Below, piece after piece: positions 1,296 through 18,878 of a stretch of DNA of 64,000 bases (position 1 is its first letter; every line of letters starts with the position of its first letter). The DNA lies in assembly GCA_964612145.1 (NCBI GenBank), contig CAZTBP010000005.1:71749-135748 (forward strand). The letters are read 5' to 3'. Under the pieces are notes generated by a model. The model saw only the letters and a list, made by a program, of their open reading frames with translations, searched no databases and was not told the DNA's origin. A program made the translations under genes and the position numbers. Source of the stretch: an uncultured Ignavibacteriales bacterium. Its GTDB lineage: Bacteria; Zixibacteria; MSB-5A5; GN15; FEB-12.

Positions 1296-2656
1296 AAGCA
1301 ATCTCTCCGCGAAGATTGATGGCCTATTCACTGGGCGTATGGCTGCTGCTGTTTATTGTCGCACCGATGAGCTACGATGTCCCGGTGCCGCTTGCCGGCT
1401 TGATATTTCTGCTCGGCAACATTGTTGCATTTGTCATCGGAACGGGCACGCATGATTTATCGCGGAAAATAGCCGGGCGAAATCCTGATGTGATCCCGGA
1501 GTCAAATATCGTGCCGGAGAATCGGTCCCGAACGCACCTGATCATAACTCTGTTTATCGTCCTCGGAATAGGCGGTGCATTGCTAAGATATTACGATCTC
1601 TTCGTCATCAAATCATATTTTGCATACGGATCCTATGCTGATTTTCGATTGAACTATGATGCTGCCGCTATTGATTTTGGCCCGGTTTCGGTGTTGTCAT
1701 CAGTTCTATTCCCGTTCTCCGTGCTACCGATGCTGTTGGTTATTTATTACCGGGATATTTCGACCAATATCCAGCGGATTACAGCCTATGCGCTGTCCGG
1801 AGGATTTGTCGTCTATTTTGCTCTGCGTGGCGGTCGGACCGGCATAACGCTGGTGGCGGTGATGGCAGTCATTGCGCTGGTTCTGTCGGGCCGACTGGGA
1901 GCGGTGGTGAGAAGCCGTCGGTTTATCCGGCTGGCTTCAGTGGGCGCAATTGCGTTTGTTGCATTTTTTGTATACTCGGCTACGATTTTAGGTGACCGGC
2001 TGGAGGCGATGGGTTTCACGTTTGTGTCCGGGCTGGAGTATCTTGAGACCGCCCACCACATCACAATGGCCGGGTGGGTGATGGATATTGCTGAGCAAAG
2101 CGAACTGGCCGAGGCTGTGGTCTACACGATCACTAGTCTAGTTCATTATTTCCTTCACGGGTTCTACCAGTTTTCTCTGGAGTTCTCAGCGTTTGAACCC
2201 CAGGGCGTTTTTTATGGTGCATTCCAGTATTACCCGGTAGCAAAATTCTTCAATGTTCTCGGTCTTGAGACCGTGACAGCCGCTCAGCTGTCGGCAGCGA
2301 TGGTCGAGCCGGGTAAATATACAACGTTCTACGGCCCCGTCCTGCAGGACTTCGGATATTTCGGATTTGTCTACTGTGCAGTACTGGGCTTCATCTCGCA
2401 GATATCGTATCGACGAGCCGTAGCCGGCGACAGGCTGCATCGTGTCCTGTATCCGTTTGCTGCGGCTGTCATTCTGCACTCGTCATTCTTGAATATGATC
2501 CAGTCCGGTACCGGCGTGTATTTTCTGACGGCGTTTCTTGCCGGGGGCGTTTTGCTTCGGATCATGGGAGGCGAATCCACGGGATATGCGACCGGTGCTA
2601 TAGAGCTATCACAAGAAGGGGGCAGCCATGAAGCTGCGATTGAACGCCAGAGATGA
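1292..2656 (+). CDS. Polytopic membrane protein, O-antigen/EPS polymerase (Wzy)-like
   Basis: 454-aa ORF with many hydrophobic segments and a larger loop near the C-terminal third. It lies between a capsule-type gene and a GT4 gene. Function is inferred from context only. Confidence 0.5.
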   Translation: MKAISPRRLMAYSLGVWLLLFIVAPMSYDVPVPLAGLIFLLGNIVAFVIGTGTHDLSRKIAGRNPDVIPESNIVPENRSRTHLIITLFIVLGIGGALLRYYDLFVIKSYFAYGSYADFRLNYDAAAIDFGPVSVLSSVLFPFSVLPMLLVIYYRDISTNIQRITAYALSGGFVVYFALRGGRTGITLVAVMAVIALVLSGRLGAVVRSRRFIRLASVGAIAFVAFFVYSATILGDRLEAMGFTFVSGLEYLETAHHITMAGWVMDIAEQSELAEAVVYTITSLVHYFLHGFYQFSLEFSAFEPQGVFYGAFQYYPVAKFFNVLGLETVTAAQLSAAMVEPGKYTTFYGPVLQDFGYFGFVYCAVLGFISQISYRRAVAGDRLHRVLYPFAAAVILHSSFLNMIQSGTGVYFLTAFLAGGVLLRIMGGESTGYATGAIELSQEGGSHEAAIERQR

Positions 2657-3857
2657 TATGACCCGATCTACTGCTTTCCGGGATTTGCGCGTGGCCATCG
2701 TCCACGACTGGCTGGTTACCTACGGCGGTGCCGAGCGGGTGCTGGAACAACTGCTGGTACTTTTTCCGCAGGCCGATCTGTTTTCACTCTATGATTTCAT
2801 CCCGGAGGGGAAACGCGGCTTCATCAGGGACAAAGATGTGACCACTTCGTTTCTCAAAAAACTTCCGATGGCTCGCAAGAGATATCGTGACTATCTCCCC
2901 CTGATGCCGCTGGCGATCGAGCAGTTTGATCTGTCAACCTACGATCTCGTTGTGTCCAGCTCGTATGCGGTGGCAAAGGGTGTGATTACTGGTCCGGATC
3001 AGGTGCATGTCTCTTATGTCCATTCGCCCATTCGCTATGCCTGGGACCTTACTCACGAGTACCTCCAGAGGACCGGGCTCAATAGGGGACTCAAGAGCGT
3101 GATTGTCAGAGCTATCCTGCATTACATCCGACAGTGGGATGTGCGCACGGCCAACGGTGTCGATGCGTTCAGTGCGAATTCACATTTTATCGCCCGCCGA
3201 ATTGAGAAGGTGTACCGTCGAGAGGCAGAAGTGATCCCGCCGCCGGTCGCGGTGGAGCAATTTAAGCTCAAAGAGAAGAAAGAAGACTTTTACCTGACGG
3301 CTTCGCGGCTGGTGCCGTACAAACGGATTGATTTGATCGTTCAGGCATTCTCGCAAATGCCGGACAAGAAACTCGTGGTTATTGGAGAGGGTCCGGAATT
3401 TGAGAAGATCCGGGCGCTGGGTGGCGATAACGTCCAGATGCTTGGTTACCAGCCGTTTGACGTCCTGCATGAGGTGATGCGTAAGGCACGGGGATTTGTG
3501 TTTGCGGCAGAGGAAGATTTTGGCATCATTCCGGTCGAGGCCCAGGCCTGTGGCACACCGGTTATCGCATACGGCAAGGGCGGGGCGCTCGAGACCGTCG
3601 TTGCCGATCAAACCGGTCAGTTCTTTGAATCGCAGACGGTCGAGTCGTTGTGCGACGCAATCGCTCGATTCGATTCCGAGCACTCACATTTTGATCCGGT
3701 GAGAATACGAGCTCATGCTGAGTCGTTTGCGACAGAAAAGTTCCTGGATCGATTCGCTGATTTTGCGTTGAAGTCAATGAATGAATTCTCATCATACCGC
3801 TCTGAAATGCCGATATCACACAGTAGAGAACGGACTTGCGGAGAAATACATGTCTAA
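2628..3857 (+). CDS. Glycosyltransferase family 4 (GT-B, group 1)
   Basis: N-terminus RVAIVHDWLVTYGGAERV and C-terminal EDFGIIPVEAQACGTPVIA are typical GT4 signatures. An AAGGGGG SD lies about 6 nt upstream of ATG 2628. Alternative start ATG 2658. Confidence 0.85.
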   Translation: MKLRLNARDDMTRSTAFRDLRVAIVHDWLVTYGGAERVLEQLLVLFPQADLFSLYDFIPEGKRGFIRDKDVTTSFLKKLPMARKRYRDYLPLMPLAIEQFDLSTYDLVVSSSYAVAKGVITGPDQVHVSYVHSPIRYAWDLTHEYLQRTGLNRGLKSVIVRAILHYIRQWDVRTANGVDAFSANSHFIARRIEKVYRREAEVIPPPVAVEQFKLKEKKEDFYLTASRLVPYKRIDLIVQAFSQMPDKKLVVIGEGPEFEKIRALGGDNVQMLGYQPFDVLHEVMRKARGFVFAAEEDFGIIPVEAQACGTPVIAYGKGGALETVVADQTGQFFESQTVESLCDAIARFDSEHSHFDPVRIRAHAESFATEKFLDRFADFALKSMNEFSSYRSEMPISHSRERTCGEIHV

Positions 3858-4920
3858 TCGCATGACAATACGACGGCCCGGTGACCAGCCGGAAACTGGT
3901 TCGAAAATAAACGTGTTTGAGCTCGCTCGAGTGCTGCTGCACCGGAAGCGAATAATAGTCGGTACCGTGGCTGCCTCCATGCTGATTACGGCGACGATAA
4001 TGCTGATTATCTCCAACAAGTATACCTCGACAGCGACCATTCTACCATCGGGCCAGCAGGACAAAATGGCAGACCTCAAATCACTGGCGGGATTGGCCGG
4101 TGCGGGGGCCACCGGTGAAAACAGTTCGGAGCTGTTTCCGGTTATTCTGGAATCCCAGACTGTGCGGAACGCTGTTTTGGCCGGCGAGTATGAGTTTGAG
4201 CACGATAGCCGGTCGCGGTCGATTCGGCTTAAAGACTACTTTGGGCTGGACAACCCGGATGAACTCATGTCCGCCCTGGCGGAAATCACGTCGGTCTCAC
4301 AGGACAGGAACACCGGCGTCATTCGGATCGGGATAGAGACAGAATTTCCTGGTCTTTCGCAGGCTGTGCTGAGAGAATACATTCACGAATTGGAGTCGTT
4401 CAATCTCCACAAACGCCGCTCGCAGGCGAGTGAACGGGCCGACTATCTCAAGCGGGAACTGGCGCAGCACAAAGAAGCGCTGGCTTCGATCGAAGATTCC
4501 CTGGCGGCGTTTCAGTCGTCAAATCGGGACTGGATGAGTTCCACTGACCCGAGCCTTGCCATAGAGATTGCTCGACTTGAGCGCGAGGTACAGGCTCGCA
4601 CCCAGACTTACATGTATCTAATGAAAGAATACGAAGTCGCCAAGCTGGACGCGCGCAAGGACGTGCCTATTGTCCAGATTTTGGATAAGCCGTCATTGCC
4701 GGCAACGAAGTCCGCCCCGAAACGTAGTATGATTGTTTTACTGGTCGGCTCGATGGCATTTATCCTGGTAATTTTCAGTATTCTGGTCGTTGAAGCCCTC
4801 ACCCGGACGGGTCAGACAGCTGAGCAGGAGTCGTTTCACAGCCTCAAGCAGGAATTTACGCAGGAATTTCCGCGGATCAATCGCCTTGTTAAACGGGTAA
4901 GCGAGAAATCCAAAGGGTAG
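3850..4920 (+). CDS. Wzz/GumC-like polysaccharide chain-length determinant protein
   Basis: N-terminal TM (IIVGTVAASMLITATIMLII) followed by YTSTATILP, a long coiled-coil-like periplasmic region and a C-terminal TM (MIVLLVGSMAFILVIFSILVV). ATG 3850 has a GGAGA SD and overlaps the GT4 stop. The ORF track starts at 3781. Confidence 0.7.
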   Translation: MSNRMTIRRPGDQPETGSKINVFELARVLLHRKRIIVGTVAASMLITATIMLIISNKYTSTATILPSGQQDKMADLKSLAGLAGAGATGENSSELFPVILESQTVRNAVLAGEYEFEHDSRSRSIRLKDYFGLDNPDELMSALAEITSVSQDRNTGVIRIGIETEFPGLSQAVLREYIHELESFNLHKRRSQASERADYLKRELAQHKEALASIEDSLAAFQSSNRDWMSSTDPSLAIEIARLEREVQARTQTYMYLMKEYEVAKLDARKDVPIVQILDKPSLPATKSAPKRSMIVLLVGSMAFILVIFSILVVEALTRTGQTAEQESFHSLKQEFTQEFPRINRLVKRVSEKSKG

Positions 4921-5058
4921 GGGGAGAAGGCCTGAGTTTTGGGTTGCATTTTCTCACGGGCGGTCGTATTATCGGTGTTCTCTCGGCCCAAAAGGCTGCA
5001 ACCGTTCGGTTTGCCCTTGACGACCGAGTAGCGATAGTATAGCTTAGCACAACAATTT

Positions 5059-5140
5059 GGTGGGGTTCCCGAGCGGCCAAAGGGAACAGACTGTAAATCT
5101 GTCGGCGAAGCCTTCGGAGGTTCGAATCCTCCCCCCACCA
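5059..5140 (+). tRNA. tRNA-Tyr (anticodon GTA), class II long variable arm
   Basis: GGTGGGGTTCCCGAGCGGCCAAAGGGAACAGACTGTAAATCTGTC...GGAGGTTCGAATCCTCCCCCCACCA is nearly identical to the E. coli tRNA-Tyr framework. Acceptor GGTGGGG/CCCCACC, anticodon loop CTGTAAA. CCA is not encoded. A T-run follows. Confidence 0.93.
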
Positions 5141-5260
5141 CTTTTTTGTTGCCGCTCATTTCCGGCCGTAGACGGTCAGCACTCACTTTACTGCGTATAC
5201 GCTTGGGACACTCGCCTGAACCCTCACCGGAGATGAAGAATCAAGTCTAATCAGTCAACT

Positions 5261-7906
5261 ATGAATTCTCCCGACCCTCACAAGCCGCTCCGTCAGAATA
5301 TCAGAATGTTGGGGAATATTCTGGGGGATGTCATTACAGGTCTGGAGGGAAAGCCGGTCCTGGATAAAGTGGCGCAGATCAGGGCGTTATCACAAAAAGC
5401 GAGAACCGGCGATACAGAAGCTCGAGCGCAATTAGTGGATGTCGTCAGCAATCTCGATAATCGAGCCCTCCGCCTGATTGCCAAGTCCTTCAACCAGTTT
5501 ATGAACCTGTCCAACATCGCCGAGCAACATCACCGGGTACGCCGGCGTCGGGCCTACCGAAGGCTTTCCGATCCCCGTCCGCAGGCCGGGTCTTTGGAAG
5601 AGTTGGTCCCTCGACTGATGGTGGAGGGTATTAGCAAGCAGCAGATCTTTGATCACCTTCAGGGACTGAATATCGATTTCGTGCTGACAGCTCACCCGAC
5701 TGAAACCCAGCGGCGGACAATGATCCAGAAGTACGATGCCATCGCCGAACATCTCGGACAACTGGACCGCGACGATCTGACGATCGACGAGCGGCACTGG
5801 AGCGAGCAGCAGTTGTATCGCCTTCTACTCTCAGCGTGGGAGACCGATGAATTGCGCCTGACGAAGCCGACACCGGTACAAGAGGCACGATGGGGCTTTG
5901 CGGTGGTTGAACAGACGCTGTGGCATACGGTACCGCACTTCTTGCGGCACCTTGATCTCGTTCTCGAAGAACACACCGGGCAGACACTGCCGGTCGATTT
6001 CAGCCCGATTCACTTTTCCTCCTGGATGGGCGGTGACCGCGATGGCAACCCGAATGTAACAGCCGAAGTTACGCGCGAGGTGCTCCTGCTTGGTCAATGG
6101 GAGGCCGCAGAACTTCTCCGAAAAGACCTGGGGAGACTTCGTTCTGAGCTATCAATGACCTCCTGCTCGGATGAACTTCGAGCCTTTGTTGGCGACGGAC
6201 GGGAGCCGTACAGGATCCTGCTGCGCCGGGTAATCGACAATCTCATTACCGATCAGGAGCACATAAAGCAGGTGCTCGACGGAGCGCGCGAGAAGTTTAG
6301 CCCATCGTATCGCAGCCTTCAGGAGCTCAAAGAGCCGCTGCTGATCTGTTACCGTTCACTGGTCGAGACCGGGATGGAGCCTCTGGCAAACGGTCTCATC
6401 AGAGACATACTCCGCAAACTGGCCTGTTTCGGGCAATCGCTGCTCAGGCTGGATATTCGTCAGGATTCAGGACGGCATACGAGGTTTCTGGATGGCCTCA
6501 CCAAATGTCTGGGCCTGTCCGGCTACGGCTCAATGGGCGAAGAGGACCGCCAAAGCTTCCTCGTGGATGCCTTAACATTCGGGGAGTTCACTCTTCCGGA
6601 CTCATTTCCCGATGATGCTGAAGATATCGAGGTTCTGGAGACATTTCGGCTCATCGCTGCGCAGGATTCCGCCCTGTTTGGTGCCTATGTCATTTCTATG
6701 GCGACAGCGCCATCGGATGTGCTGGCGGTGTATTATCTTCAGCGGTTAGCGGGTGTAGAGGACATGCTGCGTGTCGTGCCCCTGTTTGAGACACTGGCCG
6801 ACCTCGAAAATGCCGCGGAAACAGTGGATAGGCTCCTGCAGATAGAGTGGTTCACCAAGCAGCTCAGTTATTTGGAAGTGATGATCGGCTATTCGGATTC
6901 CACCAAAGACGCCGGGTTCCTTGCCGCATCCTGGGCGCAATACCGAGCACAGGAAGCGCTCATAGCAGTATGCGAAAAGCACGGAGTGCCGTTGAAATTG
7001 TTCCATGGTCGAGGGGGTACTATCAGCCGCGGCGGAGCACCTACCCATCAGGCATTACTGTCACAGCCGCCGGGCGCCGCTCAACAAGGGCTGCGGGTTA
7101 CTGAGCAGGGGGAAGTGATCAGGTTTAAGTTCGGACTTCCGGGAGTGGCTCTTCGGTCACTGGAAGTCTATATGTCGGCGGCGCTGGAGGCCGGTTTGCT
7201 GCCCCCCGCCAAACCGAAAGACAAATGGCGCTCTTTGATACAGGCTTTGGCCGATGAATCAGCGGGGGAATACCGGAGCATCGTCAAGAGTGACAAGCGG
7301 CTTGTCGAATACTTCCTCCAGACAACGCCGATTGAGGAGCTTCAGGAGATTGCGATCGGGAGCCGTCCCACGCGGCGAAAAACGGGTGGGGCTGTCGACA
7401 GTCTCCGGGCTATCCCGTGGGTCTTCGGCTGGACCCAGGTACGTCTGATGCTTCCGGCCTGGCTCGGAACTCAAGTCGTATTCGAAAATCGAGGGATCGA
7501 TCAAGAGACCATATGCGAAATGCTTTCGGACTGGGTCTATTTCCGCAATGTAATCGGAATGCAGGAAATGGTGCTGGCAAAGACATTACCGGACATTACG
7601 GAACTCTATGAACAGACGCTGACTGATGAGCGCCTGCACCCGTTTGGCCGTAAGCTGCGCGAGTACTTACAGGAAGTCACTGAAGGCTGGCTCAAGTTGA
7701 CGGGAAAAAAGGAACTGCTGAGCGATTCACCGGTGATCCGGAGATCTATCGCAGTCCGGAATCCATATACCGATGTGCTGAATATCCTTCAGGTTGAGGC
7801 CCTCAAAAGATACCGAGCGGCTGGGGAAGATCACGATTCGGACCTGCGTGGTGCCCTGCTGCTGACAATAGTAGGCATTGCAGCCGGGATGAGAAACACA
7901 GGGTAG
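5261..7906 (+). CDS. ppc: Phosphoenolpyruvate carboxylase
   Basis: 881 aa with VLTAHPTE, GGDRDGNP, IGYSDSTKDAG, FHGRGGTISRGG and the C-terminal MRNTG signature of PEPC. Confidence 0.95.
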   Translation: MNSPDPHKPLRQNIRMLGNILGDVITGLEGKPVLDKVAQIRALSQKARTGDTEARAQLVDVVSNLDNRALRLIAKSFNQFMNLSNIAEQHHRVRRRRAYRRLSDPRPQAGSLEELVPRLMVEGISKQQIFDHLQGLNIDFVLTAHPTETQRRTMIQKYDAIAEHLGQLDRDDLTIDERHWSEQQLYRLLLSAWETDELRLTKPTPVQEARWGFAVVEQTLWHTVPHFLRHLDLVLEEHTGQTLPVDFSPIHFSSWMGGDRDGNPNVTAEVTREVLLLGQWEAAELLRKDLGRLRSELSMTSCSDELRAFVGDGREPYRILLRRVIDNLITDQEHIKQVLDGAREKFSPSYRSLQELKEPLLICYRSLVETGMEPLANGLIRDILRKLACFGQSLLRLDIRQDSGRHTRFLDGLTKCLGLSGYGSMGEEDRQSFLVDALTFGEFTLPDSFPDDAEDIEVLETFRLIAAQDSALFGAYVISMATAPSDVLAVYYLQRLAGVEDMLRVVPLFETLADLENAAETVDRLLQIEWFTKQLSYLEVMIGYSDSTKDAGFLAASWAQYRAQEALIAVCEKHGVPLKLFHGRGGTISRGGAPTHQALLSQPPGAAQQGLRVTEQGEVIRFKFGLPGVALRSLEVYMSAALEAGLLPPAKPKDKWRSLIQALADESAGEYRSIVKSDKRLVEYFLQTTPIEELQEIAIGSRPTRRKTGGAVDSLRAIPWVFGWTQVRLMLPAWLGTQVVFENRGIDQETICEMLSDWVYFRNVIGMQEMVLAKTLPDITELYEQTLTDERLHPFGRKLREYLQEVTEGWLKLTGKKELLSDSPVIRRSIAVRNPYTDVLNILQVEALKRYRAAGEDHDSDLRGALLLTIVGIAAGMRNTG

Positions 7907-8068
7907 AGATGTTCCAGTCAGACGGCACAGGCTACGTTGGCACGAAGTAGGGCCGTGCGGTGGCATCCCACATGATGATAGTACTAACACTCCCGTATAT
8001 ACCCCACCACATTTTCATCTTTTATTTCGAATGACGCCGCCCACAAGCCGTAGATGGACATTATTGCT

Positions 8069-8084
8069 TGCCAGGCGCTTGGCA
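8069..8084. promoter_or_regulatory. Near-perfect 16-bp palindrome TGCCAGGCGCTTGGCA, candidate operator upstream of the MATE gene
   Basis: 14 of 16 positions are self-complementary. It lies about 50 nt upstream of the preferred MATE start (8135). Inference only; it would be inside the CDS if ATG 8054 is used. Confidence 0.2.
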
Positions 8085-8134
8085 GAAAGTATCTTGGCTC
8101 GACATTGAAGAAGACGGATGAAACGATCGGCGGC

Positions 8135-9508
8135 ATGGATCAACGACCCAACAGAAAGCGTGCTGACTACACTGAGGGACCCATTCTCGGGTCAATCCTT
8201 CGCATGGGTTTGCCGTCGATGTTCGGCTTCCTGAGCCAGAATATATACACGCTCGCCGACACCTTCTGGGTATCGAGACTGCCCGAAAAGGAAGCCGGGG
8301 TCGCAGCGATCACGTTTTTCGCGAATCTGCTTTGGGTTGTTTTTTCCTTCAATCATCTAGTTGGACCAGGATCGGTTGCCGTGATTTCACGACGCTATGG
8401 TCAGAAAGACTTCGCCGCGGCCGAGCGAGCGATCAAAGAAACCGTGCTGCTCAAGCTGATATTCGGTCTCATTATAGGCGTTATCGGATTCTTGTTTATC
8501 CGTCCGCTCATGCAGCTCGTGGGCGCCGAGGGGTTGTCACTTGAACTGGGAATCAGCTACGGCTCGGTTATGTTTTTGGGGCTTCCGATCCTCTTCGCTA
8601 CATATTCTATTTTTACGGCGATGAGAAGCGTGGCTAACCCGCAGCTTGCTATGGGGCTGATGATTGGATCCAATCTGCTGAACCTCGGGCTCGACCCGCT
8701 ATTCATCTTTGGCTGGTTTGGGCTTCCTGAGTGGGGACTGGTTGGGGTGGCCTATGCCTCTGTTACCAGCTTTTCTCTCACGTTTCTTCTTGGGATAGTG
8801 TTGTTCCAATTCGATATAACCAATGTGCGTGTCCGGTTGAACTGGGCCCGCAAGCCGACAATTAAGACCATGTGGCAAATCGTGCGTATCGGTATCCCCG
8901 CCTGGCTGGGAGAACTATCGTTTTCTTCGTCCCGCATGGTGATCACTCCCATAGTGGCCATGTTCGGGACGGCCGTGGTGGCTGCCTACGGAGTCGGCAT
9001 GCAAATATTTGGTTTTGGTATCATGCTTCTGGTGGGAATAGGTTTGGGGCTGTCGTCACTCATTGGACACACTGTCGGCAGCGGAAAAATCGAGCGTGCG
9101 AAAAAGACGGCCGATCAGTCGGTATTGCTGTCGATAGCGATCATGGCGGCCTATGGAGTGGCTGTTTATTTCGGCGCCAGATTCATCATGGACTTGTTCT
9201 TCGAGTCGCCTGAAACGATTGATGCTGGTGTGACACTGTTGCGGATTTTCGCGGTTGGCTTTCCGTTTTACGGAGCGTTCATTATGCTTGAAAACGTTCA
9301 CAGCGGCGTTGGCCTCAATACGCCCGTCATGGTTGTGAACATCATCCAGTCATGGCTGCTTCAGGCGCTGCCGATTCTCGTCGCGGTTAAATTCTTCAAT
9401 ATGCCCGCGACGGTTATCTGGTGGCTGTTTACAATCGCTGGCATGGCTTCGACGCTAGGCATGTATTGGTATTACCGGAAGGGTCGATGGTTGACGGCTG
9501 AGGTGTAG
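8135..9508 (+). CDS. MATE family efflux transporter
   Basis: Typical MATE N-terminus (GPILGSILRMGLPSMFGFLSQNIYTLADTFWVSRL), 12 hydrophobic segments and two-fold internal symmetry. The ORF track starts at 8054; ATG 8135 is preferred. Confidence 0.85.
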   Translation: MDQRPNRKRADYTEGPILGSILRMGLPSMFGFLSQNIYTLADTFWVSRLPEKEAGVAAITFFANLLWVVFSFNHLVGPGSVAVISRRYGQKDFAAAERAIKETVLLKLIFGLIIGVIGFLFIRPLMQLVGAEGLSLELGISYGSVMFLGLPILFATYSIFTAMRSVANPQLAMGLMIGSNLLNLGLDPLFIFGWFGLPEWGLVGVAYASVTSFSLTFLLGIVLFQFDITNVRVRLNWARKPTIKTMWQIVRIGIPAWLGELSFSSSRMVITPIVAMFGTAVVAAYGVGMQIFGFGIMLLVGIGLGLSSLIGHTVGSGKIERAKKTADQSVLLSIAIMAAYGVAVYFGARFIMDLFFESPETIDAGVTLLRIFAVGFPFYGAFIMLENVHSGVGLNTPVMVVNIIQSWLLQALPILVAVKFFNMPATVIWWLFTIAGMASTLGMYWYYRKGRWLTAEV

Positions 9509-9518
9509 GGGTAACGTG

Positions 9519-10295
9519 ATGGAATGGTATCATTATGCGTTGACTGTGGCAGCAGGTTTTGCTGCCGGATTTATCAATACGCTGGCCGGAAGCGGCTCGC
9601 TTATCACATTGCCGCTGTTGATATTCCTCGGCCTACCTGCCAACGTAGCCAATGGCACCAACCGTGTCGCAATTCTCCTGCAAACAGCTGTGGCCGTGGG
9701 AAGATTCAAACAGGGAAAGGCAATCACGTTCCGGCGTGGCCTGCTTCTTTCGGCACCGGCGATAATTGGCGCCGTGATTGGGGCCCAGATTGCCGTCGAC
9801 CTCAATGAGCAAGCGATGCGAACGGTAATCGGCATTTTGATGATCGTGATGCTCCTTGTCATTCTAATCCGACCAAAACGATGGCTCAAGGCACAATCGG
9901 AGGCTCTGGCGCAGCGCCCCGGGTGGCTGCAGGTAGGCGTGTTCTTCCTGATCGGACTCTACGGCGGCTTCATTCAGGCCGGTGTAGGGATTTTTCTCCT
10001 GGCCGGACTGGTGCTTGCCGCCGGTTACGAACTGGTTGGTGCGAATGCTGTGAAGAATTTCATTGTTCTCTGTTTTACCGCGTTTGCGCTGGTCGTTTTC
10101 ATACTGAACGATCAGGTCCAATGGGCTATAGGCTTGGTCCTGGCGGCAGGAAGCATGCTGGGAGCGTGGGTAGCGGCACGGATGGCGCTGGAGCGTGGGG
10201 CGCCTTTTGTCCGATGGATATTGATCGCCGTGATCATCGTCTCAGCAGTGGCACTGTTGGGCATTGACGACGCTGTTCGTAACATTTTCCACTGA
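9519..10295 (+). CDS. TauE/SafE family sulfite/anion exporter-like permease
   Basis: 259-aa polytopic protein with GFINTLAGSGSLITLPLL and GTNRVAILLQ motifs typical of TauE/SafE (DUF81). GTG 9516 or ATG 9519. Confidence 0.8.
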   Translation: MEWYHYALTVAAGFAAGFINTLAGSGSLITLPLLIFLGLPANVANGTNRVAILLQTAVAVGRFKQGKAITFRRGLLLSAPAIIGAVIGAQIAVDLNEQAMRTVIGILMIVMLLVILIRPKRWLKAQSEALAQRPGWLQVGVFFLIGLYGGFIQAGVGIFLLAGLVLAAGYELVGANAVKNFIVLCFTAFALVVFILNDQVQWAIGLVLAAGSMLGAWVAARMALERGAPFVRWILIAVIIVSAVALLGIDDAVRNIFH

Positions 10296-12001: not shown

Positions 12002-12107
12002 TTTTTTGCCCCCCGTTGAACAGTGATTAAACTTGCGCTCGCCGTACCCTCTCCCGACCTTTTTGCTTGGATGTACGGAGGCACACCAATATGAATGGAG
12101 ATGCGTC

Positions 12108-12863
12108 ATGCTCAAGAAAATCATTCTCGTTGTCGTAATTCTGATAGTCGTCGGGCTGGGGGCGGTCTATTTCGCACGCAATGTGATTGCTGAAAGCGCG
12201 GTCGAGGAAGGAAGTAAATATGCTCTTGGTGTCCAGACCGACCTTGGCTCGGCATCGGTGGACATCGGCGGCGGAAGCCTCGGACTGGCGGAGTTCACAA
12301 TCAGCAACCCGGAAGGGTTCTCCTCGGACAAACTTATGACAATGAACCATGGTTTTCTCGATGTCGAGACCGGATCAGTTTTTGATGATGAGGTCGTGGT
12401 CGATTCGCTGGTGCTCGAGAGTTTTCGACTGAGGCTGGAACAGCAGAACACCAAAAGCAACGTGATGGAAGTGCTCAATCACATCAAACAGGTGGACTTC
12501 GGGTCAGAACAACAGCAGTCGCAGCAGAAATTCCGTATCAAGAAACTGATGCTGCGCGATATTGGGGTCGATGCTTCCCTGACTGTAGAGGGTAACGAGC
12601 AGTACCAGAAATCCTACACAGTCAGCGACATTACACTCACCGACGTCGGTTCCGATGGTGGGGCGTCGATCGGGCAGATCACGGCACAAGTCGTGCGGGC
12701 TGTACTGCAGAAATCTGCAGCCAGCGGTCGCGGCGTTTTGCCCGAGGAGTTCAATGCCCCCCTCAACCGCATTGCTGATCAGAGCAAAGAATCAATTAAA
12801 GAGAAGGTAACGGACAAAATAGAGGACGTTGGCAAGTCGTTACTTGGCGACGATGGCGACTAA
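12108..12863 (+). CDS. Hypothetical N-terminally membrane-anchored protein
   Basis: ATG 12108 gives MLKKIILVVVILIVVGLGAVYF (signal-anchor). The rest is hydrophilic and Gln/Asp/Ser-rich, with no motif I recognise. The ORF track starts at 12033. Confidence 0.6.
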   Translation: MLKKIILVVVILIVVGLGAVYFARNVIAESAVEEGSKYALGVQTDLGSASVDIGGGSLGLAEFTISNPEGFSSDKLMTMNHGFLDVETGSVFDDEVVVDSLVLESFRLRLEQQNTKSNVMEVLNHIKQVDFGSEQQQSQQKFRIKKLMLRDIGVDASLTVEGNEQYQKSYTVSDITLTDVGSDGGASIGQITAQVVRAVLQKSAASGRGVLPEEFNAPLNRIADQSKESIKEKVTDKIEDVGKSLLGDDGD

Positions 12864-12883: not shown

Positions 12884-13120
12884 ATGAATATTCTCTTATT
12901 TCTATTGATCGGCCTGCTGGCCGGTTGGATTGCGGGAAAGCTGTTTAAAGGGAAGGGTTTTGGGCTGGTCGGCAACCTCGTTGTCGGTGTCATTGGAGCC
13001 GTTGTGGGCGGTTTCCTGTTCGGGCTTGTGGGGCTTCAAGCAACCGGACTTCTGGGTGAGTTGATCGCAGCCGTAGTTGGCGCTCTTGTCCTGCTCTGGT
13101 TGATAAGTTTGATTAAGTGA
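12884..13120 (+). CDS. GlsB/YeaQ/YmgE family stress-response membrane protein
   Basis: 78 aa. LLIGLLAGWIAGKLFKGKGFGLVGNLVVGVIGAVVGGFLF is the classic transglycosylase-associated/YeaQ pattern. Confidence 0.85.
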   Translation: MNILLFLLIGLLAGWIAGKLFKGKGFGLVGNLVVGVIGAVVGGFLFGLVGLQATGLLGELIAAVVGALVLLWLISLIK

Positions 13121-13320: not shown

Positions 13321-14091
13321 ATGCGTTACTTACTCGCCGCTCTTGTGTTCATAAGTCTGTCACTATTGTCAGCATCGATCGGATCAATCGAATCGGTCTA
13401 TCCGTCGGGGTATGCGATTCAGGCCGGTTATGCAATCCCGAGAACTCAAATCCCGGTGGGGGAGACGCTCGTCATCGAGCGCTGGCTGGTAAATAACGAA
13501 GCATTCACCATTAGCGGTCTCTACTTTTCCGACCACCTTCCGCTGGCTTTTGATACGATCAGTGTACTGATACAGCTTAACGGCAATCCGGTATCGCACG
13601 CCAGCTACGCCACCACTTCCGTTTTTCCGAACAACGAAGCCCTGCATACGATTATCGACGCACCGGATACCATCGGGCAGCCGTCGACCCTGATCCGGCC
13701 GGGTGACAGTCTTCACATGATGCTTTTTGTCCTTGGAACCCAGGCGGGGGACTTCCAGCTTAATCTGCACAGCTCCGCTTTTGTTGCCGGCAGTCTCCCA
13801 TTCTTCACACTCAGTAACACCGTTACGACAATCACGTTTACTTCCGGCTCCTGCTGCGAGTATCGGGGCGACGTAAACGGTGATTCAGGAGACGAGTCCC
13901 AGATTGATGTCTCGGACTTGACGTATCTGGTTGGCTTTTTGTTTACGGGAGGGCCGTCTCCGGCTTGTTTCGAGGAGGCGAATATCAACGGGTCAACCGC
14001 TGAAGAGGGTGACCTTGTAAATATCGGCGATCTAACATTCCTGGTCGACTTCCTGTTCCGAGGCGGAGCATCCCCACCACCGTGCTTCTGA
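13321..14091 (+). CDS. Secreted protein with C-terminal tandem dockerin-like (EF-hand type) repeats
   Basis: Signal peptide MRYLLAALVFISLSLLSASIG. The C-terminus reads CCEYRGDVNGDSGDESQIDVSDLTYLVGFLFTGGPSPACFEEANINGSTAEEGDLVNIGDLTFLVDFLFRGGASPPPC, which is two D-x-N-G-D...D-L-x-x-L-V-x-F-L-F modules. Confidence 0.7.
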   Translation: MRYLLAALVFISLSLLSASIGSIESVYPSGYAIQAGYAIPRTQIPVGETLVIERWLVNNEAFTISGLYFSDHLPLAFDTISVLIQLNGNPVSHASYATTSVFPNNEALHTIIDAPDTIGQPSTLIRPGDSLHMMLFVLGTQAGDFQLNLHSSAFVAGSLPFFTLSNTVTTITFTSGSCCEYRGDVNGDSGDESQIDVSDLTYLVGFLFTGGPSPACFEEANINGSTAEEGDLVNIGDLTFLVDFLFRGGASPPPCF

Positions 14092-14109: not shown

Positions 14110-15573
14110 TCAGGTCTTGCTGCTTACCTCCTGCCGATCAGGATGCGTCACTGGTTGATTCTCAGCTCCCAAAAACCACTTGACCCAGCTGTGCACATCC
14201 TGTCGCCGAACTACCCGGCGAAGAACTTTCATATGACGCTGGCGCTCCTCATGACTCATGATATAAGCTCGGTAGATAGCATCGGCGGTTCCCTCGATAT
14301 CGTACGGATTGACTACGAGAGCACCCTTGCCAAGTTGATCCACCGCACCGGCAAATTCCGACAGAATGAGAACGCCGTTGTTATCAATCGAGGCAGCACA
14401 ATACTCTTTGGACACCAGGTTCATGCCGTCGCGTAATGGCGTAACCAGGGCAATTTCGCACGCCCGGTAATGTCCGAGAAGCTGAACGCGGTCGAGACTT
14501 CGGAACATGTAGTGAATCGGCACCCAGCCATGGCTCGCAAACCGGCCGTTAATACGACCGGACAGTGTATCAAGCTGATCTTTGAGCTCCTGATATTCCT
14601 TGACCTTCACGCGGCTGGGGATTACGACCTGTACCAGAGATATCTTGCCGTGGATATCCGGGTATTTCTCAAGCAGTCGTTCGAAAGCGAGGAATCGCTC
14701 AGGTATGCCCTTGGTGTAGTCGAGTCGATCCAATCCCAGGACCAGCTTGATGCTGCCGTAGTTTTCGTGAACGAACCACGCCGAGTCATCGACCTCCTTT
14801 GTCGCGGCACTCTCGGCAAATTCGTTGTAGTCAATACTGATCGGGTAGAACCCCAGGCGAATGGATCGTCCCCGGTGGATCATACTTGACTCTCGACGTC
14901 GGGCTTTGATTTTAGAGTCCGGGACTAACCACCGGACAGTAGAGATGAAATTTCGCCGGTCATGGGAAGTCTGGAAGCCGATGTGATCATAATCGAGCAG
15001 TCCGTGCACAATCTCCGATCCCCAGGGGAGGCGGCGTATAAGATCGAATGACGGGAAAGGGATATGCAGGAAGAAACTAATGTGCTGGGTGATGCCAAAC
15101 TCGCGAAGAAAATGGCCGACCAGCATCAACTGATAGTCATGAATCCAGACGAATGAGTCCGGCTCGATATGCTTCGCGACGACCTCAGCGAACCGTCGAT
15201 TGATCTGCATATACGCCTCCCAATGATCCGGATCAAACGAGCAGTGACCGAGTAAGTCGTGAAATAAGGGCCAGATAGTTTGATTCGAAAAGCCTCGATA
15301 GTACCTCTGCACTTCCTCCTCGGTGAGAGGAACGGGAAAAACTTCATAGTCGTGGTTCTTGCTGAATTCGTGCAGTATCTCGTCAGCCGGAGCTTCCTCT
15401 CCGCAGCCGGGCCAGCCAATCCACTTGCCCTGGTTTTTTCTCATAAGCGGAGTCAGGGCGGTGACAAGCCCGCCGGCACCGGGGGAAACGGTCCAGACAT
15501 CATTTTCGGTCTTGTCAATGGTTACCGGGAGTCGGTTGGATACGATTAGGAATTTCTTATCGTCAAAGGCCAT
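14110..15573 (-). CDS. otsA: Alpha,alpha-trehalose-phosphate synthase (GT20)
   Basis: [35 protein letters not shown] and the NPYD motif are typical of OtsA. GAGGAG SD upstream of ATG 15573. Confidence 0.9.
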
Positions 15574-15661
15574 TGCAGCTCCTCAGAGTGTTCATGAAGC
15601 TGGTGCGCAAGGTGTGGTTCACAATGTTTGGTTGCAGCCGTCACACAGCACTCAAACACAC

Positions 15662-15690
15662 AATATAGGCAGACCGTCGATCAAATGCAA
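15662..15690 (-). promoter_or_regulatory. Candidate sigma70-type promoter for otsA (TTGCAT-17 nt-TATATT)
   Basis: Read on the minus strand inside the 145-nt otsB-otsA gap: -35 TTGCAT (15690-15685), 17-nt spacer, -10 TATATT (15667-15662). About 80-nt leader to ATG 15573. Confidence 0.35.
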
Positions 15691-15718
15691 TCACGCCGGT
15701 GTTCAGTATATGCAACGC

Positions 15719-16507
15719 CTATAAACGAGTGTTAGTTCGCCAATTGTCAAGGAAGGTATAGAGTTCGTCGGGCGGTTTAATCCAGAGCTTTGCTTGTGTT
15801 TCACGGAACTCTTTTCGGACCAGAACCGGCAGTCCCCGATCCTTCAGGATGCGAAAACCGTCCTCATCAGTGTGATCGTCGCCAAGAAAAGCAATCGGAT
15901 TGACCTCGTCCGTTTCGTCCAAAATGGTGCTGACAGCATCTGCTTTGGAAATGCCGCTGACACGGATCTCCAGGCCGCCGTCGAAAGCGTGCCATTCCAA
16001 ATTGAAATCGTCGATCTTGTCAAAGAACTGAACGTGGATCCTTGCACGTAAAGCTTCTGCCTCAGTCTCAGGCAGTCCGCGCCAGTGAAACGCAATACCA
16101 GCCGGTTTGTGTTCTGCAAAAGACTGGAGTTGCTCATCGGCTATCCAATTCCTGACCTGCGAGAATCCTGACAGGTTTTTGTCGCTCAGTTCTCTGATGC
16201 CCCGGGTCCCGTCGGGTCGCAGAAACTCCATACCATGCGAACCCCAGATTTCCGGTGGCGAGTTAAGCCCCAGCAGCGGAAGAAGATGATCAATGGCCCG
16301 TCCGCTGATAATGACAATGCGAGTCGAGCAATTCTCCATCATCTCCACAAACCGTTCCCGAATTCCGGCGTAGGGGATCGCTCGATCACGTTTCTTGCGA
16401 AACGGTGCCAGGGTGCCGTCGTAGTCCAGCAGCAACACAGGCTCGGGTGCAGTTGCAACCCGCGGCCAGAATTCGTCCAAATTGAGGGCGTCGTCAAGAA
16501 CCTTCAT
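15719..16507 (-). CDS. otsB: Trehalose-6-phosphate phosphatase (HAD family)
   Basis: LLLDYDGTLAPF (HAD motif I), IISGR and GDDHTDEDGF motifs. It starts 9 nt after the treT stop. Confidence 0.85.
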   Translation of the reverse strand: MKVLDDALNLDEFWPRVATAPEPVLLLDYDGTLAPFRKKRDRAIPYAGIRERFVEMMENCSTRIVIISGRAIDHLLPLLGLNSPPEIWGSHGMEFLRPDGTRGIRELSDKNLSGFSQVRNWIADEQLQSFAEHKPAGIAFHWRGLPETEAEALRARIHVQFFDKIDDFNLEWHAFDGGLEIRVSGISKADAVSTILDETDEVNPIAFLGDDHTDEDGFRILKDRGLPVLVRKEFRETQAKLWIKPPDELYTFLDNWRTNTRL

Positions 16508-16516
16508 GCGGCCAAG

Positions 16517-17758
16517 TTAATCAGCCATCAGGTGATTGCCAAGTCCTTGTTTGACACCGAGCATAAGGGTAAGATATTCGCGGAGATGCCGTGTGAGGAG
16601 GAAGTTGTGTTTGACGAACTTGTGGGCTGTATCACCCATCTCTTTCATCCGGTCGGGGCGCCGGAGCAGTTCACGCATTCGCAATGCGGCTCCTTCCGGT
16701 GTGTCCACAAGAAAACCGGTATGGTAATTGTGAACCTGAAGAACAATGCCGCCGATATTACCGCCGATCACCGGTTTGCGTTTCCACATTGCCTCGGTCA
16801 CTGTCAGCCCAAACCCCTCCTGCAATGATTTCTGCAAAACAATAGTAGAGGCACGCTGGAGGGCATTGATAATTCGGTGAGCATCGGGCGGCAACAGCAG
16901 CACGTTAATCCGCGGATCGTCCTGAGCCGCTTCTTTTACTTCTTCAAGTACTGCCGCACCCTCGGGATCATCGGTGGCGCCGCCGCCGGCCAAAACCAGT
17001 TGTGCATCGACCGAGCCGTTAAGCATCTGGAAGGCATCAATTACACCAAGGGGATCCTTAAAGCGGTCGAAGCGCGAAATCTGGGTCAGGATGGGCCGTT
17101 TTGGATCAAGGCTGAAGCGTGTCAGCACCTGGTCAATCTCGGCCCGCTCGAGTTCACGATTCTTTTCGCTGAGCGGGTCAATCGATGGGGCGATGATGAA
17201 TTGCGGATGATTCATGCGCTGGGCGAAATGGGGCATAGAGAAGATGCTTGCATCGTAGGCAACCGCCAGACTCTTGATGTATCGCCAGACCTTCCGATTC
17301 GGTCGGCTGGCGTCGATATGACATCGCCAGATCCATTTACCGCGCCGTTCGGGGCACAGGTTCCGCAGGAAAGCCGGCTGCGGATCATGAATAAAGACAA
17401 AGTCGGCTTCCTCGAGAATGGGGCGAAGCCGCTGTGCATTATCGGCCACGGTCTCTTGATACGTTTCGATCATAGATTGAGTTAACGGTACGTGCTGCCC
17501 CTGAAGACCATTGTGAAAAGACTTCGTGACATTGAAATAGTCCGGGTGGCCCTCGACCACCTCCCATGAGGCTTCCAACCCAAGTTCATTCATGAGCGGA
17601 ATGAGCCAGCCGAGAATTTCGGCCACACCGCCGCCTTCGCGAGTGGAATTGACATGCACTACCCGCGCCCCCTGAAGCTCCCGGGCGAGCTGGGCCAGCT
17701 GGCTTATCGGAACCGGCCCAACTACTTTCTCATATGCCGCTAATGATCCGCCACCCAT
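16517..17758 (-). CDS. treT: Trehalose glycosyltransferring synthase (TreT-type GT4)
   Basis: VHVNSTREGGGVAEIL, WEVVEGHPDYFNVTKSFHNGLQG, WRCHIDASRPN, IAPSIDPLSEKN, ILTQISRFDRFKDP and LQKSLQEGFGLTVTEAMWKRKPVIGG closely track archaeal TreT (Pyrococcus/Thermococcus) as I remember it. Confidence 0.8.
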   Translation of the reverse strand: MGGGSLAAYEKVVGPVPISQLAQLARELQGARVVHVNSTREGGGVAEILGWLIPLMNELGLEASWEVVEGHPDYFNVTKSFHNGLQGQHVPLTQSMIETYQETVADNAQRLRPILEEADFVFIHDPQPAFLRNLCPERRGKWIWRCHIDASRPNRKVWRYIKSLAVAYDASIFSMPHFAQRMNHPQFIIAPSIDPLSEKNRELERAEIDQVLTRFSLDPKRPILTQISRFDRFKDPLGVIDAFQMLNGSVDAQLVLAGGGATDDPEGAAVLEEVKEAAQDDPRINVLLLPPDAHRIINALQRASTIVLQKSLQEGFGLTVTEAMWKRKPVIGGNIGGIVLQVHNYHTGFLVDTPEGAALRMRELLRRPDRMKEMGDTAHKFVKHNFLLTRHLREYLTLMLGVKQGLGNHLMAD

Positions 17759-17765
17759 AGCTGCC

Positions 17766-18437
17766 TCAATTCTCCTGGTCGGTCAGGGCTGTCACCAACC
17801 GCTTCTTGAGTTCGGGAAGGGCAAGATAGTAGAAATCGATATTCTGAAGACGATGGACAATGTCTTCCGTTCCCGAACCAAAGCCCTCGAGCCAGGCCGT
17901 GAAGTCATCTGTATGACTATCGGTGCGTCGTCTCGCCTCAATGAAGTGATAGTAAATGGAGCTAAACGACATGTTCGACACTTGCTCGATTAAATCGTCT
18001 GCCTTTTCGAGCACAATTCCGGTGTCGAACACAACCGTGACGGCCCGCATAAAGCGGAATTCCTCGCCGCGCTGAACGAACGGGAGGTATGGTACTTCCG
18101 ACAGCCGCTCATCGATCACTTCGCCTACGATATCCCGAAGATCCTCCATGGAGGGAAGGGAATACGGGTTAATCACGCCCAGCCGTTCGGCAAGAGCCCG
18201 GTCTCGAAGCGATCGGGCCGACCAGACAGCCAGGTCGTTGCGAAACTCCGGATCGTCGAAAGTCGGTCGAACGACCGTTTCACAGAAATGATGAAACAGG
18301 CATTCTACCGGACAATGGGTCACTCGTTCGTGTAGTTCACGAAGGTTGACTGCGGTTTCGACGCCGCCCATTCGTGTGATGATAGTGCAGTCTTTAACCT
18401 CAAATGGCATATTCTGTTTTTCGGTTGCCAGAGCCAT
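17766..18437 (-). CDS. Conserved-looking hypothetical protein with internal two-fold repeat, first gene of the trehalose operon
   Basis: 223 aa. Residues ~11-108 and ~126-217 align to each other (L-F-H-H-F-C-E vs I-Y-Y-H-F-I-E; D-L-A-V-W vs D-F-T-A-W). A Cys/His cluster HCPVECLFHHFC occurs only in repeat 1. The stop lies 7 nt before the treT start. Confidence 0.65.
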   Translation of the reverse strand: MALATEKQNMPFEVKDCTIITRMGGVETAVNLRELHERVTHCPVECLFHHFCETVVRPTFDDPEFRNDLAVWSARSLRDRALAERLGVINPYSLPSMEDLRDIVGEVIDERLSEVPYLPFVQRGEEFRFMRAVTVVFDTGIVLEKADDLIEQVSNMSFSSIYYHFIEARRRTDSHTDDFTAWLEGFGSGTEDIVHRLQNIDFYYLALPELKKRLVTALTDQEN

Positions 18438-18496
18438 AAATTTACCTTCAACAACAGCTTATGACGGATTTCGACAATGAGCCGTCCTGCAGCCCC

Positions 18497-18524
18497 AATC
18501 TACAGAGTTTAAACCGTGAATCAA
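18497..18524 (-). promoter_or_regulatory. Candidate promoter of the unknown-treT-otsB operon (TTGATT-16 nt-TAGATT)
   Basis: Minus-strand reading: -35 TTGATT (18524-18519), 16-nt spacer, -10 TAGATT (18502-18497). About 60-nt leader, GAAGG SD before ATG 18437. Confidence 0.25.
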
Positions 18525-18602
18525 GGGGGCAGTTCGCTGAGATTAGGCGTTTTGTGAATCGGACTGCATTTTTGGAGAAGATTGATTTTTCCCAGAAAGT
18601 TC

Positions 18603-18632
18603 TTGAAATCAACTGGTCCGTACTTTTATATT
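18603..18632 (+). promoter_or_regulatory. Candidate promoter of tRNA-Thr (TTGAAA-18 nt-TATATT)
   Basis: -35 TTGAAA 18603-18608 and -10 TATATT 18627-18632, about 45 nt upstream of the tRNA 5' end. Confidence 0.3.
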
Positions 18633-18681
18633 TGCCGATCAGAACAGGGCGGCCGGCAGTGGCCGCCGTTAATGTCTGCAA

Positions 18682-18754
<73 letters not shown>

Positions 18755-18878
18755 TTTTTCTTTTATCGCTGCGGCTGAGACAGCCTGATTCACGTTACGC
18801 TTACTTCTCAATTTCCTTTCTTTCACACACCGGCTTTGACGAAAGAACTTTGACAGACCAGGCCTCTGTTGTTACGTT

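Follow-up and report, generated by a model that had tools for sequence, protein, structure and literature searches.

The stretch of DNA analyzed here (the window) comprises 64,000 nucleotides (nt) of contig CAZTBP010000005.1 from an uncultured Ignavibacteriales bacterium, which GTDB places in the Zixibacteria. The minus strand of the window carries a cluster of four genes in the order DUF5752, treT, otsB and otsA. The first gene encodes a protein of 223 amino acids (aa), a bacterial member of the OrfY/DUF5752 family. Its placement directly before treT is near-obligate in related loci, and we propose, tentatively, that the product is a protein-level partner of the trehalose synthase TreT. The genes and the junction between the first two are as follows.

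17766–18437, minus strand: OrfY/DUF5752-family gene, ATG start, 223 aa plus stop (open reading frame list and sequence)
17759–17776, minus strand: DUF5752–treT junction, a 7-nt spacer with candidate Shine-Dalgarno sequences (read from the sequence)
16517–17758, minus strand: TreT-type trehalose synthase of family GT4, 413 aa (PF21269 TreT_GT1, PF00534 and PDB matches)
15719–16507, minus strand: trehalose-6-phosphate phosphatase, OtsB-like, HAD type, 262 aa (PF02358, TIGR00685)
14110–15573, minus strand: trehalose-6-phosphate synthase, OtsA-like, GT20, 487 aa (PF00982, TIGR02400)

A preliminary description of this DNA, made from the letters without database searches, had reported the 223-aa open reading frame (ORF), its place at the head of a trehalose operon and a stop codon 7 nt from the treT start. 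All three stand. The stop codon TGA is at positions 17766–17768 and the treT ATG is at 17758–17756. A candidate Shine-Dalgarno sequence for treT, GAGG (17764–17767), overlaps the TGA, and a second, AGGAG (17772–17776), is within the final codons of the DUF5752 gene. This layout is consistent with translational coupling of treT to the gene before it. The coupling is tight, and the earlier claim of co-expression is upheld.

The TreT ORF matches PF21269 (E = 2e-56) and PF00534 (E = 4e-22) in Pfam. Its best PDB match is 6ZJ4, described as a 'trehalose phosphorylase/synthase' (E = 4.8e-118), which we take to be the Thermoproteus enzyme that was made with a solubility tag; the next is the Pyrococcus horikoshii TreT, 2X6Q (E = 2.5e-104). 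The NCBIfam model for Thermococcales TreT gives 388 bits, under its equivalog cutoff of 775 bits. Judged by its TreT-specific N-terminal domain, its GT4 C-terminal domain and its close homology to characterised TreTs, the downstream gene is a treT. The OtsB-like ORF matches PF02358 (E = 1e-20) and scores 87.3 bits with TIGR00685, over the cutoff of 68.05. The OtsA-like ORF matches PF00982 (E = 3.6e-144) and scores 535.8 bits with TIGR02400, slightly below the cutoff of 564.85. A gap of 145 nt separates otsB and otsA. Both the OtsA/OtsB and the TreT routes to trehalose are thus present in one apparent operon (14110–17758, minus strand), as they are in most of 80 related species loci. The presence of both routes in one operon implies that they are either redundant or carry flux in opposite directions.

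The first protein matches the Pfam family DUF5752 (PF19027) with 209.9 bits against a cutoff of 23 (E = 3.4e-62). The match spans residues 10–218 and positions 2–207 of the 208 in the profile, i.e., the family is covered at full length; NCBIfam has no model for the protein. A DUF family seen beside glycosyltransferases had been suspected earlier, and DUF5752 is such a family. The protein had also been called unknown, but a solved homologue exists. It is 4CSO, 'OrfY protein, transcription factor', from Thermoproteus tenax, the only family match among PDB sequences. The window protein alone finds it with E = 9.2e-15 (phmmer, single sequence), and a profile of 78 family members finds it with E = 8.7e-49 over residues 6–213 of 216. 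The profile search of the PDB produced no second relative; ATP-synthase b and others at E ≥ 0.02 represent coiled-helix noise. The family was gathered from a library of 1.84 billion proteins, where it forms 649 clusters (50% identity) at E ≤ 1e-3. From these, 150 representatives were listed, and 78 full-length diverse members make up the family alignment.

Structure modeling agrees with the sequence matches. The AlphaFold2 model of the window protein has a predicted local distance difference test score (pLDDT) of 76.3 and a predicted template modeling score (pTM) of 0.63. When compared with the PDB by Foldseek, it matches the 4CSO chains at template modeling (TM) scores of 0.76–0.80 (E about 1e-10), and no PDB entry except 4CSO is found below E 1. 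The Pfam search and structure prediction that the preliminary description had proposed as a check thus both lead to the same family. The window gene is a bacterial OrfY/DUF5752 member with an orphan fold that has no relative detectable among solved structures. It represents no new kind of system; rather, a known and functionally uncharacterised family gains a bacterial member. No published function for DUF5752, OrfY or 4CSO was found in a literature search, which did not reach the key papers. The gene that precedes treT in T. tenax is said to have been named orfY by Kouril et al. in 2008.

The window protein and T. tenax OrfY are homologous over their full length. They have the same fold, a similar size (about 216–223 aa) and two repeats, and they share the motifs HH/YH-F, NDF-x-x-W and R-x-R. 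They differ in that identity is only about 25%, the window protein has four cysteines of which OrfY has none, and the window member is bacterial, with Zixibacteria-type relatives and an operon that adds otsB and otsA.

At about 220 aa, the OrfY/DUF5752 protein is acidic and soluble, with two homologous half-domains packed into one pseudo-dimeric body. The half-domains in the window protein are as follows.

18090–18416, minus strand: repeat 1, residues 8–116, a beta-hairpin and five helices, with conserved H50, E53, R57, N67-D68, W72, E84, Y92 and L100-R101 (hhalign, AlphaFold2 and repeat-on-repeat alignment)
17775–18077, minus strand: repeat 2, residues 121–221, with the same order of elements and the conserved twins H164, E167, R171, D177-D178, W182, Y203 and L210 (same evidence)

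That the protein is an internal duplication had been noticed earlier from the sequence and is upheld by hhalign, which aligns the N-terminal and C-terminal halves of the 78-sequence alignment over 102 columns with a probability of 99.8% and E = 8.6e-28. When the halves of the window protein are compared directly by BLASTP, the best hit (E = 6.8) is not significant, so the duplication is visible only through profiles. The AlphaFold2 model displays the secondary-structure order, a beta-hairpin followed by five helices, twice. The paired motifs listed earlier are present: LFHHFCE (47–53) with IYYHFIE (161–167), DLAVW (68–72) with DFTAW (178–182), and PFEV (11–14) with FRF (127–129). The proposed terminal pair L-x-[DE]-L-[RK] also exists, as MEDLR (97–101) and LPELK (207–211), except that repeat 1 starts with M and not L. 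When repeat 1 is modeled alone, the Foldseek match is again 4CSO only, with a root-mean-square deviation of 2.3 Å over 83 residues, and the N-terminal strand region becomes a low-confidence helix. A ribbon-helix-helix fold for the single repeat was considered and is unsupported, the repeat-1 model having matched nothing but 4CSO.

Seven positions are invariant across both repeats in the repeat-on-repeat alignment: H50/H164, E53/E167, R57/R171, D68/D178, W72/W182, Y92/Y203 and L100/L210. The His-Glu-Arg set is on the second helix of each repeat and Asp-Trp is on the third, with the Tyr in addition. By speculation from this conservation, the twin residues may form one or two pseudo-symmetric sites, either for a ligand or for an interface. 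A glucoside such as trehalose, or a nucleotide-sugar, is a speculative candidate for such a ligand.

Conserved polar residues could also be catalytic. In that case OrfY would be a trehalose or glucan enzyme of a new fold (a hydrolase, phosphatase or isomerase) that feeds TreT with glucose or processes its product, with His, Glu, Asp and Arg as catalytic residues. The polar residues H50, H164, E84, D68, D178 and R101 are invariant or nearly so among the 78 members, the gene is always found among sugar-metabolising enzymes, and in some lineages it is fused to a kinase. The symmetry of the conserved residues in both repeats, however, typifies a binding or interface surface more than a single active site, and no enzyme family is matched in sequence or fold. 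E84 is not kept in the crystallised OrfY, which has Ile there and a Glu one position later, and the body is small, mostly helical and without a cofactor motif. The preliminary description had recognised no catalytic motif, and we agree. An enzymatic role is very unlikely.

Gene order was compared in two sets of loci. A scan at species level, covering a single genome for each GTDB species, yielded 80 loci at 50–75% identity, with record titles that name Zixibacteria, Calditrichota, Sumerlaeota, Thermodesulfobacteriota, Acidobacteriota, Ignavibacteria and others. In 79 of the 80, the next gene downstream, on the same strand, encodes a TreT homologue; the contig of the 80th ends 61 nt past the DUF5752 gene. 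OtsB and OtsA come next in most of them. Scanning metagenomes with a distant subfamily added another 80 loci, which were pooled with 7 loci of individual distant or fusion representatives; counts for this distant clade are limited to the 75 loci having at least 400 nt downstream. TreT is directly downstream in 63 of these 75 and about 1.7–1.8 kb downstream in 6 more. In the only one of the six that was inspected (L139, positions 5983–9578), a 557-aa TreS-like gene of the alpha-amylase family is between DUF5752 and TreT. Single very distant representatives (25–28% identity) also precede TreT, with stop/start overlap. The linkage to treT, for which the preliminary description had asked neighbourhood statistics to be run, holds in both sets; a lack of such linkage, which that description had named as refuting its reading, is thereby not what the loci show.

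The distance from stop to start in 135 adjacent pairs has a median of -4 nt and a maximum of 31 nt, and it is negative, i.e., the genes overlap, in 113 pairs; these values are approximate, the start having been picked nearest the aligned TreT N-terminus. Placement of DUF5752 before TreT is near-obligate and translationally coupled. The stop/start overlap implies co-translation in step with the enzyme.

DUF5752 is also found in other trehalose contexts. In three fusion proteins of 526–745 aa (P0245, P0252 and P0197), a kinase resembling maltokinase (Mak) is followed by a C-terminal DUF5752 domain. Searched against the PDB, the first 513 residues of P0245 find maltokinases with E = 5e-50. Two fusion contigs were looked up, those of P0245 (L085, positions 3354–5591) and P0252 (L086, positions 1528–3669). 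In both, TreT is the next gene and MscS-type channel genes are nearby. Locus L085 has a second, free-standing DUF5752 copy at 8846–9499, after a gene resembling a mechanosensitive (MS) channel. An apparent fusion of MscS with DUF5752 (P0251) is a weak Pfam hit only and is not relied on. The other neighbours are all genes of trehalose or alpha-glucan metabolism or of osmotic release: TreS, TreY, GlgC and MscS-like channels.

From these findings we infer that OrfY acts post-translationally on TreT, as a partner or regulator without catalytic activity of its own, possibly by binding a ligand via the twin conserved residues. The proposal is a tentative one. The preliminary description had offered a regulatory or sensor subunit and a chaperone for TreT as candidate roles, and both are plausible. 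OrfY would be produced in step with TreT in a fixed proportion and would probably bind it; in other lineages its partner may instead be the maltokinase, TreS or TreY encoded next to it. Under osmotic or desiccation stress, OrfY would adjust the synthesis or turnover of trehalose. With otsA, otsB and treT in one operon, transcription is unable to separate synthesis by OtsAB from the TreT reaction. The latter is reversible in some TreTs. Synthesis by OtsAB alongside a TreT running in reverse would hydrolyse glucose 6-phosphate for nothing, and a gate at the protein level would prevent such a futile cycle.

Several points weigh against this proposal. TreT made recombinantly from T. tenax, P. horikoshii or T. 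litoralis needs no OrfY for activity, which implies that OrfY is dispensable for catalysis. No DUF5752–TreT fusion occurs among the 150 listed representatives. Locus L144 (positions 2507–8973) consists of TreY (1033 aa), DUF5752, about 1.3 kb without a long ORF, and GlgC, with no TreT within 6 kb, and locus L134 has no TreT in the available 1.7 kb of downstream contig. The confidence of the AlphaFold2 model, given above, is moderate, and the idea of a ligand site is founded on sequence conservation alone. The depositors of 4CSO gave the molecule the name 'transcription factor'.

The same linkage and coupling would be expected if OrfY were a folding or solubility helper dedicated to TreT, i.e., a chaperone that serves assembly and not regulation, and sequence data hardly separate the two ideas. 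A weak hint toward a chaperone is that, according to a review, a Thermoproteus TreT was produced with a solubility tag (PMC6861944). The maltokinase fusions, and the loci in which DUF5752 is linked to TreS or TreY and TreT is missing, point the other way, toward a role that depends on the pathway or a metabolite and not on a single client protein. The chaperone explanation has a low probability in our view.

A working analogy for a regulatory partner of TreT is available in T. tenax. The TPSP of that organism acquires synthase activity only when it forms a complex with a glycosyltransferase (GT) that is co-transcribed and non-catalytic, and it has been suggested that complex-based regulation may be general for trehalose-synthesising enzymes (Zaparty et al. 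2013, PMC3634074). The GT activator, TTX_1305, has 387 aa and a GT4 fold, and its operon includes an MscS-type channel (PMC3634074). Some DUF5752 loci similarly carry an MS channel and an extra GT. There is no sequence or fold relation between DUF5752 and TTX_1305, however, and the GT partners TPSP and not TreT. The resemblance of mechanism is functional and hypothetical.

Repeat 1 of the window protein has one feature that repeat 2 lacks, a cluster of Cys and His residues.

18279–18317, minus strand: clade-specific Cys/His patch HCPVECLFHHFCE, residues 41–53 (sequence and conservation counts)

The four cysteines are at residues 17, 42, 46 and 52, all within repeat 1. The C17 codon is at 18387–18389, and the string THCPVECLFHHFCE represents residues 40–53. 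The cysteines and the string HCPVECLFHHFC are as previously described. It had been proposed that they form a metal or redox site, and in that event the patch (C17, C42, C46, C52, H49 and H50) would make OrfY a zinc, iron or redox sensor for TreT. As a family feature this does not hold. Only H50 (78 of 78 diverse members) and its repeat-2 twin H164 (77 of 78) are conserved. C17 is found in 53 of the 78, H49 in 25 (with Tyr in 34), C46 in 12, C42 in 8, H41 in 7 and C52 in 6, and T. tenax OrfY has no Cys in 208 aligned residues. The usual residues family-wide are V/I at 42, S/V at 46 and W/H/Y at 52, which implies that these are buried or packing positions and not ligands.

The pattern is different in the close clade, here the 120 nearest relatives (58–78% identity) from Zixibacteria-type metagenome bins. 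C17 is present in all 118 sequences that have a residue there, C42 in 98 of 120, C46 in 100 and C52 in 107; at least three Cys are present in 115 of 120 and all four in 68. C42, C46 and C52 are each replaced in 11–18% of sequences, most commonly by Ser and Ala. By these counts the four cysteines are an embellishment specific to the Zixibacteria-type clade, outside the core mechanism and not a family trait, and their occupancy does not fit a metal site that is obligatory. Losses such as those in the relatives that lack one or more of the four are rarely tolerated where a metal has a structural role. There are no CxxC pairs and no classical Zn or Fe-S spacing. On the other side, four Cys and two His do exist, C17 is universal in the close relatives that have a residue at that position, and most close relatives keep at least three Cys. 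C42, C46 and H50 are at i, i+4 and i+8, on or beside a predicted helix (residues 44–55). The lineage is known mainly from sediment-type metagenomes, where Cys chemistry would be plausible. Metal or redox sensing thus has a small chance as a clade-specific addition and is much less likely as the function of the family.

An extended and rather unlikely version of the TreT-partner proposal combines these features. OrfY/DUF5752 would represent a class of pseudo-symmetric sensor subunits, not recognised before, in which the two repeats form a site for a glucoside (trehalose) or a nucleoside diphosphate-sugar, and occupancy of the site would switch the bound TreT on or off, or set its direction. Elsewhere the target would be maltokinase, TreS or TreY, and in the Zixibacteria-type clade the Cys patch would add redox control. 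If this were true, a cell could run OtsAB and TreT from the same operon and still avoid a futile cycle. Among stress protectants trehalose is a major one, and TreT serves as a biocatalyst. DUF5752 has had a crystal structure since 2014 and is found in hundreds of lineages. A role for OrfY as a regulatory or stabilising subunit would explain post-translational control of trehalose in many bacteria and archaea and could improve production of TreT. The comparative data given here may exceed the record for the family with respect to the strength of coupling, the maltokinase fusions, the links to TreS, TreY, GlgC and MscS, the symmetric residues and the lineage-restricted Cys patch.

The name given to 4CSO raises another explanation, that OrfY is a transcription factor that responds to sugar and controls its own operon, orfY-treT(-otsBA). 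Its gene is the first in the operon, a frequent position for an autoregulator, and a pseudo-dimeric body could read a pseudo-palindromic site. Sugar-sensing regulators of the TrmB type adjoin treT in Thermococcales. They have a winged-helix DNA-binding domain and a sugar-binding domain, and their genes are not known to be translationally coupled to treT. Like TrmB, DUF5752 is a small protein whose gene adjoins treT and which could tie trehalose metabolism to sugar status, and this analogy is probably behind the 4CSO label. Unlike TrmB, the window protein has no TrmB-type domain detectable by Pfam or Foldseek. No DNA-binding domain (helix-turn-helix (HTH), winged HTH or ribbon-helix-helix) is among the Pfam and NCBIfam hits, and neither the whole protein nor one repeat gives a Foldseek match to a DNA-binding protein below E 1. 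The protein is acidic, with an isoelectric point (pI) of 4.86; the family median is 5.5, 9 of the 78 members have a pI > 7, and the OrfY fragment has 5.7. It would be unusual for a regulator gene to overlap an enzyme gene, as DUF5752 does in 113 of 135 loci. The fusions that occur naturally join DUF5752 to maltokinase, and none to HTH or other DNA-binding domains were seen.

The region upstream of the gene also bears on this explanation.

18438–18680, minus strand: upstream intergenic region, presumed operon promoter and 5' untranslated region, 243 nt
18681–18755, plus strand: tRNA-Thr(CGT), divergent, the upstream boundary of the region

There is no sigma-70-like site on the minus (coding) strand of this region, and a scan with Rfam shows no element besides the tRNA. 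Positions 18430–18690 contain no inverted repeat of 8 nt or more. Across 58 upstream regions no conserved palindrome was found by k-mer enrichment, a simple search that could miss degenerate sites. The k-mers that are enriched in the 58 regions represent only the tRNA gene and a start-proximal TCTAAAG. In at least 10 related loci, 9-mers from the tRNA are over-represented ahead of the DUF5752 gene, which implies that tRNA–operon synteny is conserved.

The sequence TCTAAAG is 2–3 nt ahead of the DUF5752 start codon in 17–23 of the 58 non-redundant relatives, often with AGGA before it. The loci that carry it directly upstream of the DUF5752 start are in the series L003–L058. In the window (18438–18452, minus strand) the motif is present only in degenerate form, GAAGGTAAATTTATG. 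The pattern TCTAAAG-N2-3-[AG]TG was counted over about 0.8 Mb of loci plus the window. It occurs 19 times, of which 16 are at a DUF5752 start and none are at other ORFs of at least 100 aa. A lineage-specific ribosome-binding site is rejected on this count, and the window treT has the ordinary GAGG and AGGAG. A gene-specific TCTAAAG before the start codon implies some control of the DUF5752 gene at the nucleic-acid level, and the motif may be a translational operator. Its conservation in many relatives is a point in favor of a transcription factor, and the missing inverted repeat and palindrome are points against one. The points against are not decisive, but we consider a transcription factor doubtful and retain the proposal of a protein-level partner of TreT.

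A mechanical list of ORFs includes several of 66–86 aa on both strands around the tRNA gene (18448–18826). Two of these on the minus strand, 18448–18708 and 18626–18826, overlap the tRNA and are almost certainly not genes.

Beyond otsA there are three genes on the plus strand. The one nearest to otsA (13321–14091) encodes a 256-aa protein with no Pfam match. It is preceded by a gene (12884–13120) for a 78-aa 'transglycosylase-associated' small membrane protein of the GlsB/YmgE type (PF04226, E = 1e-10) and by one (12033–12863) for a DUF748-like protein with a match under the Pfam cutoff. Together with the trehalose genes, these three look like a stress-protection neighbourhood.

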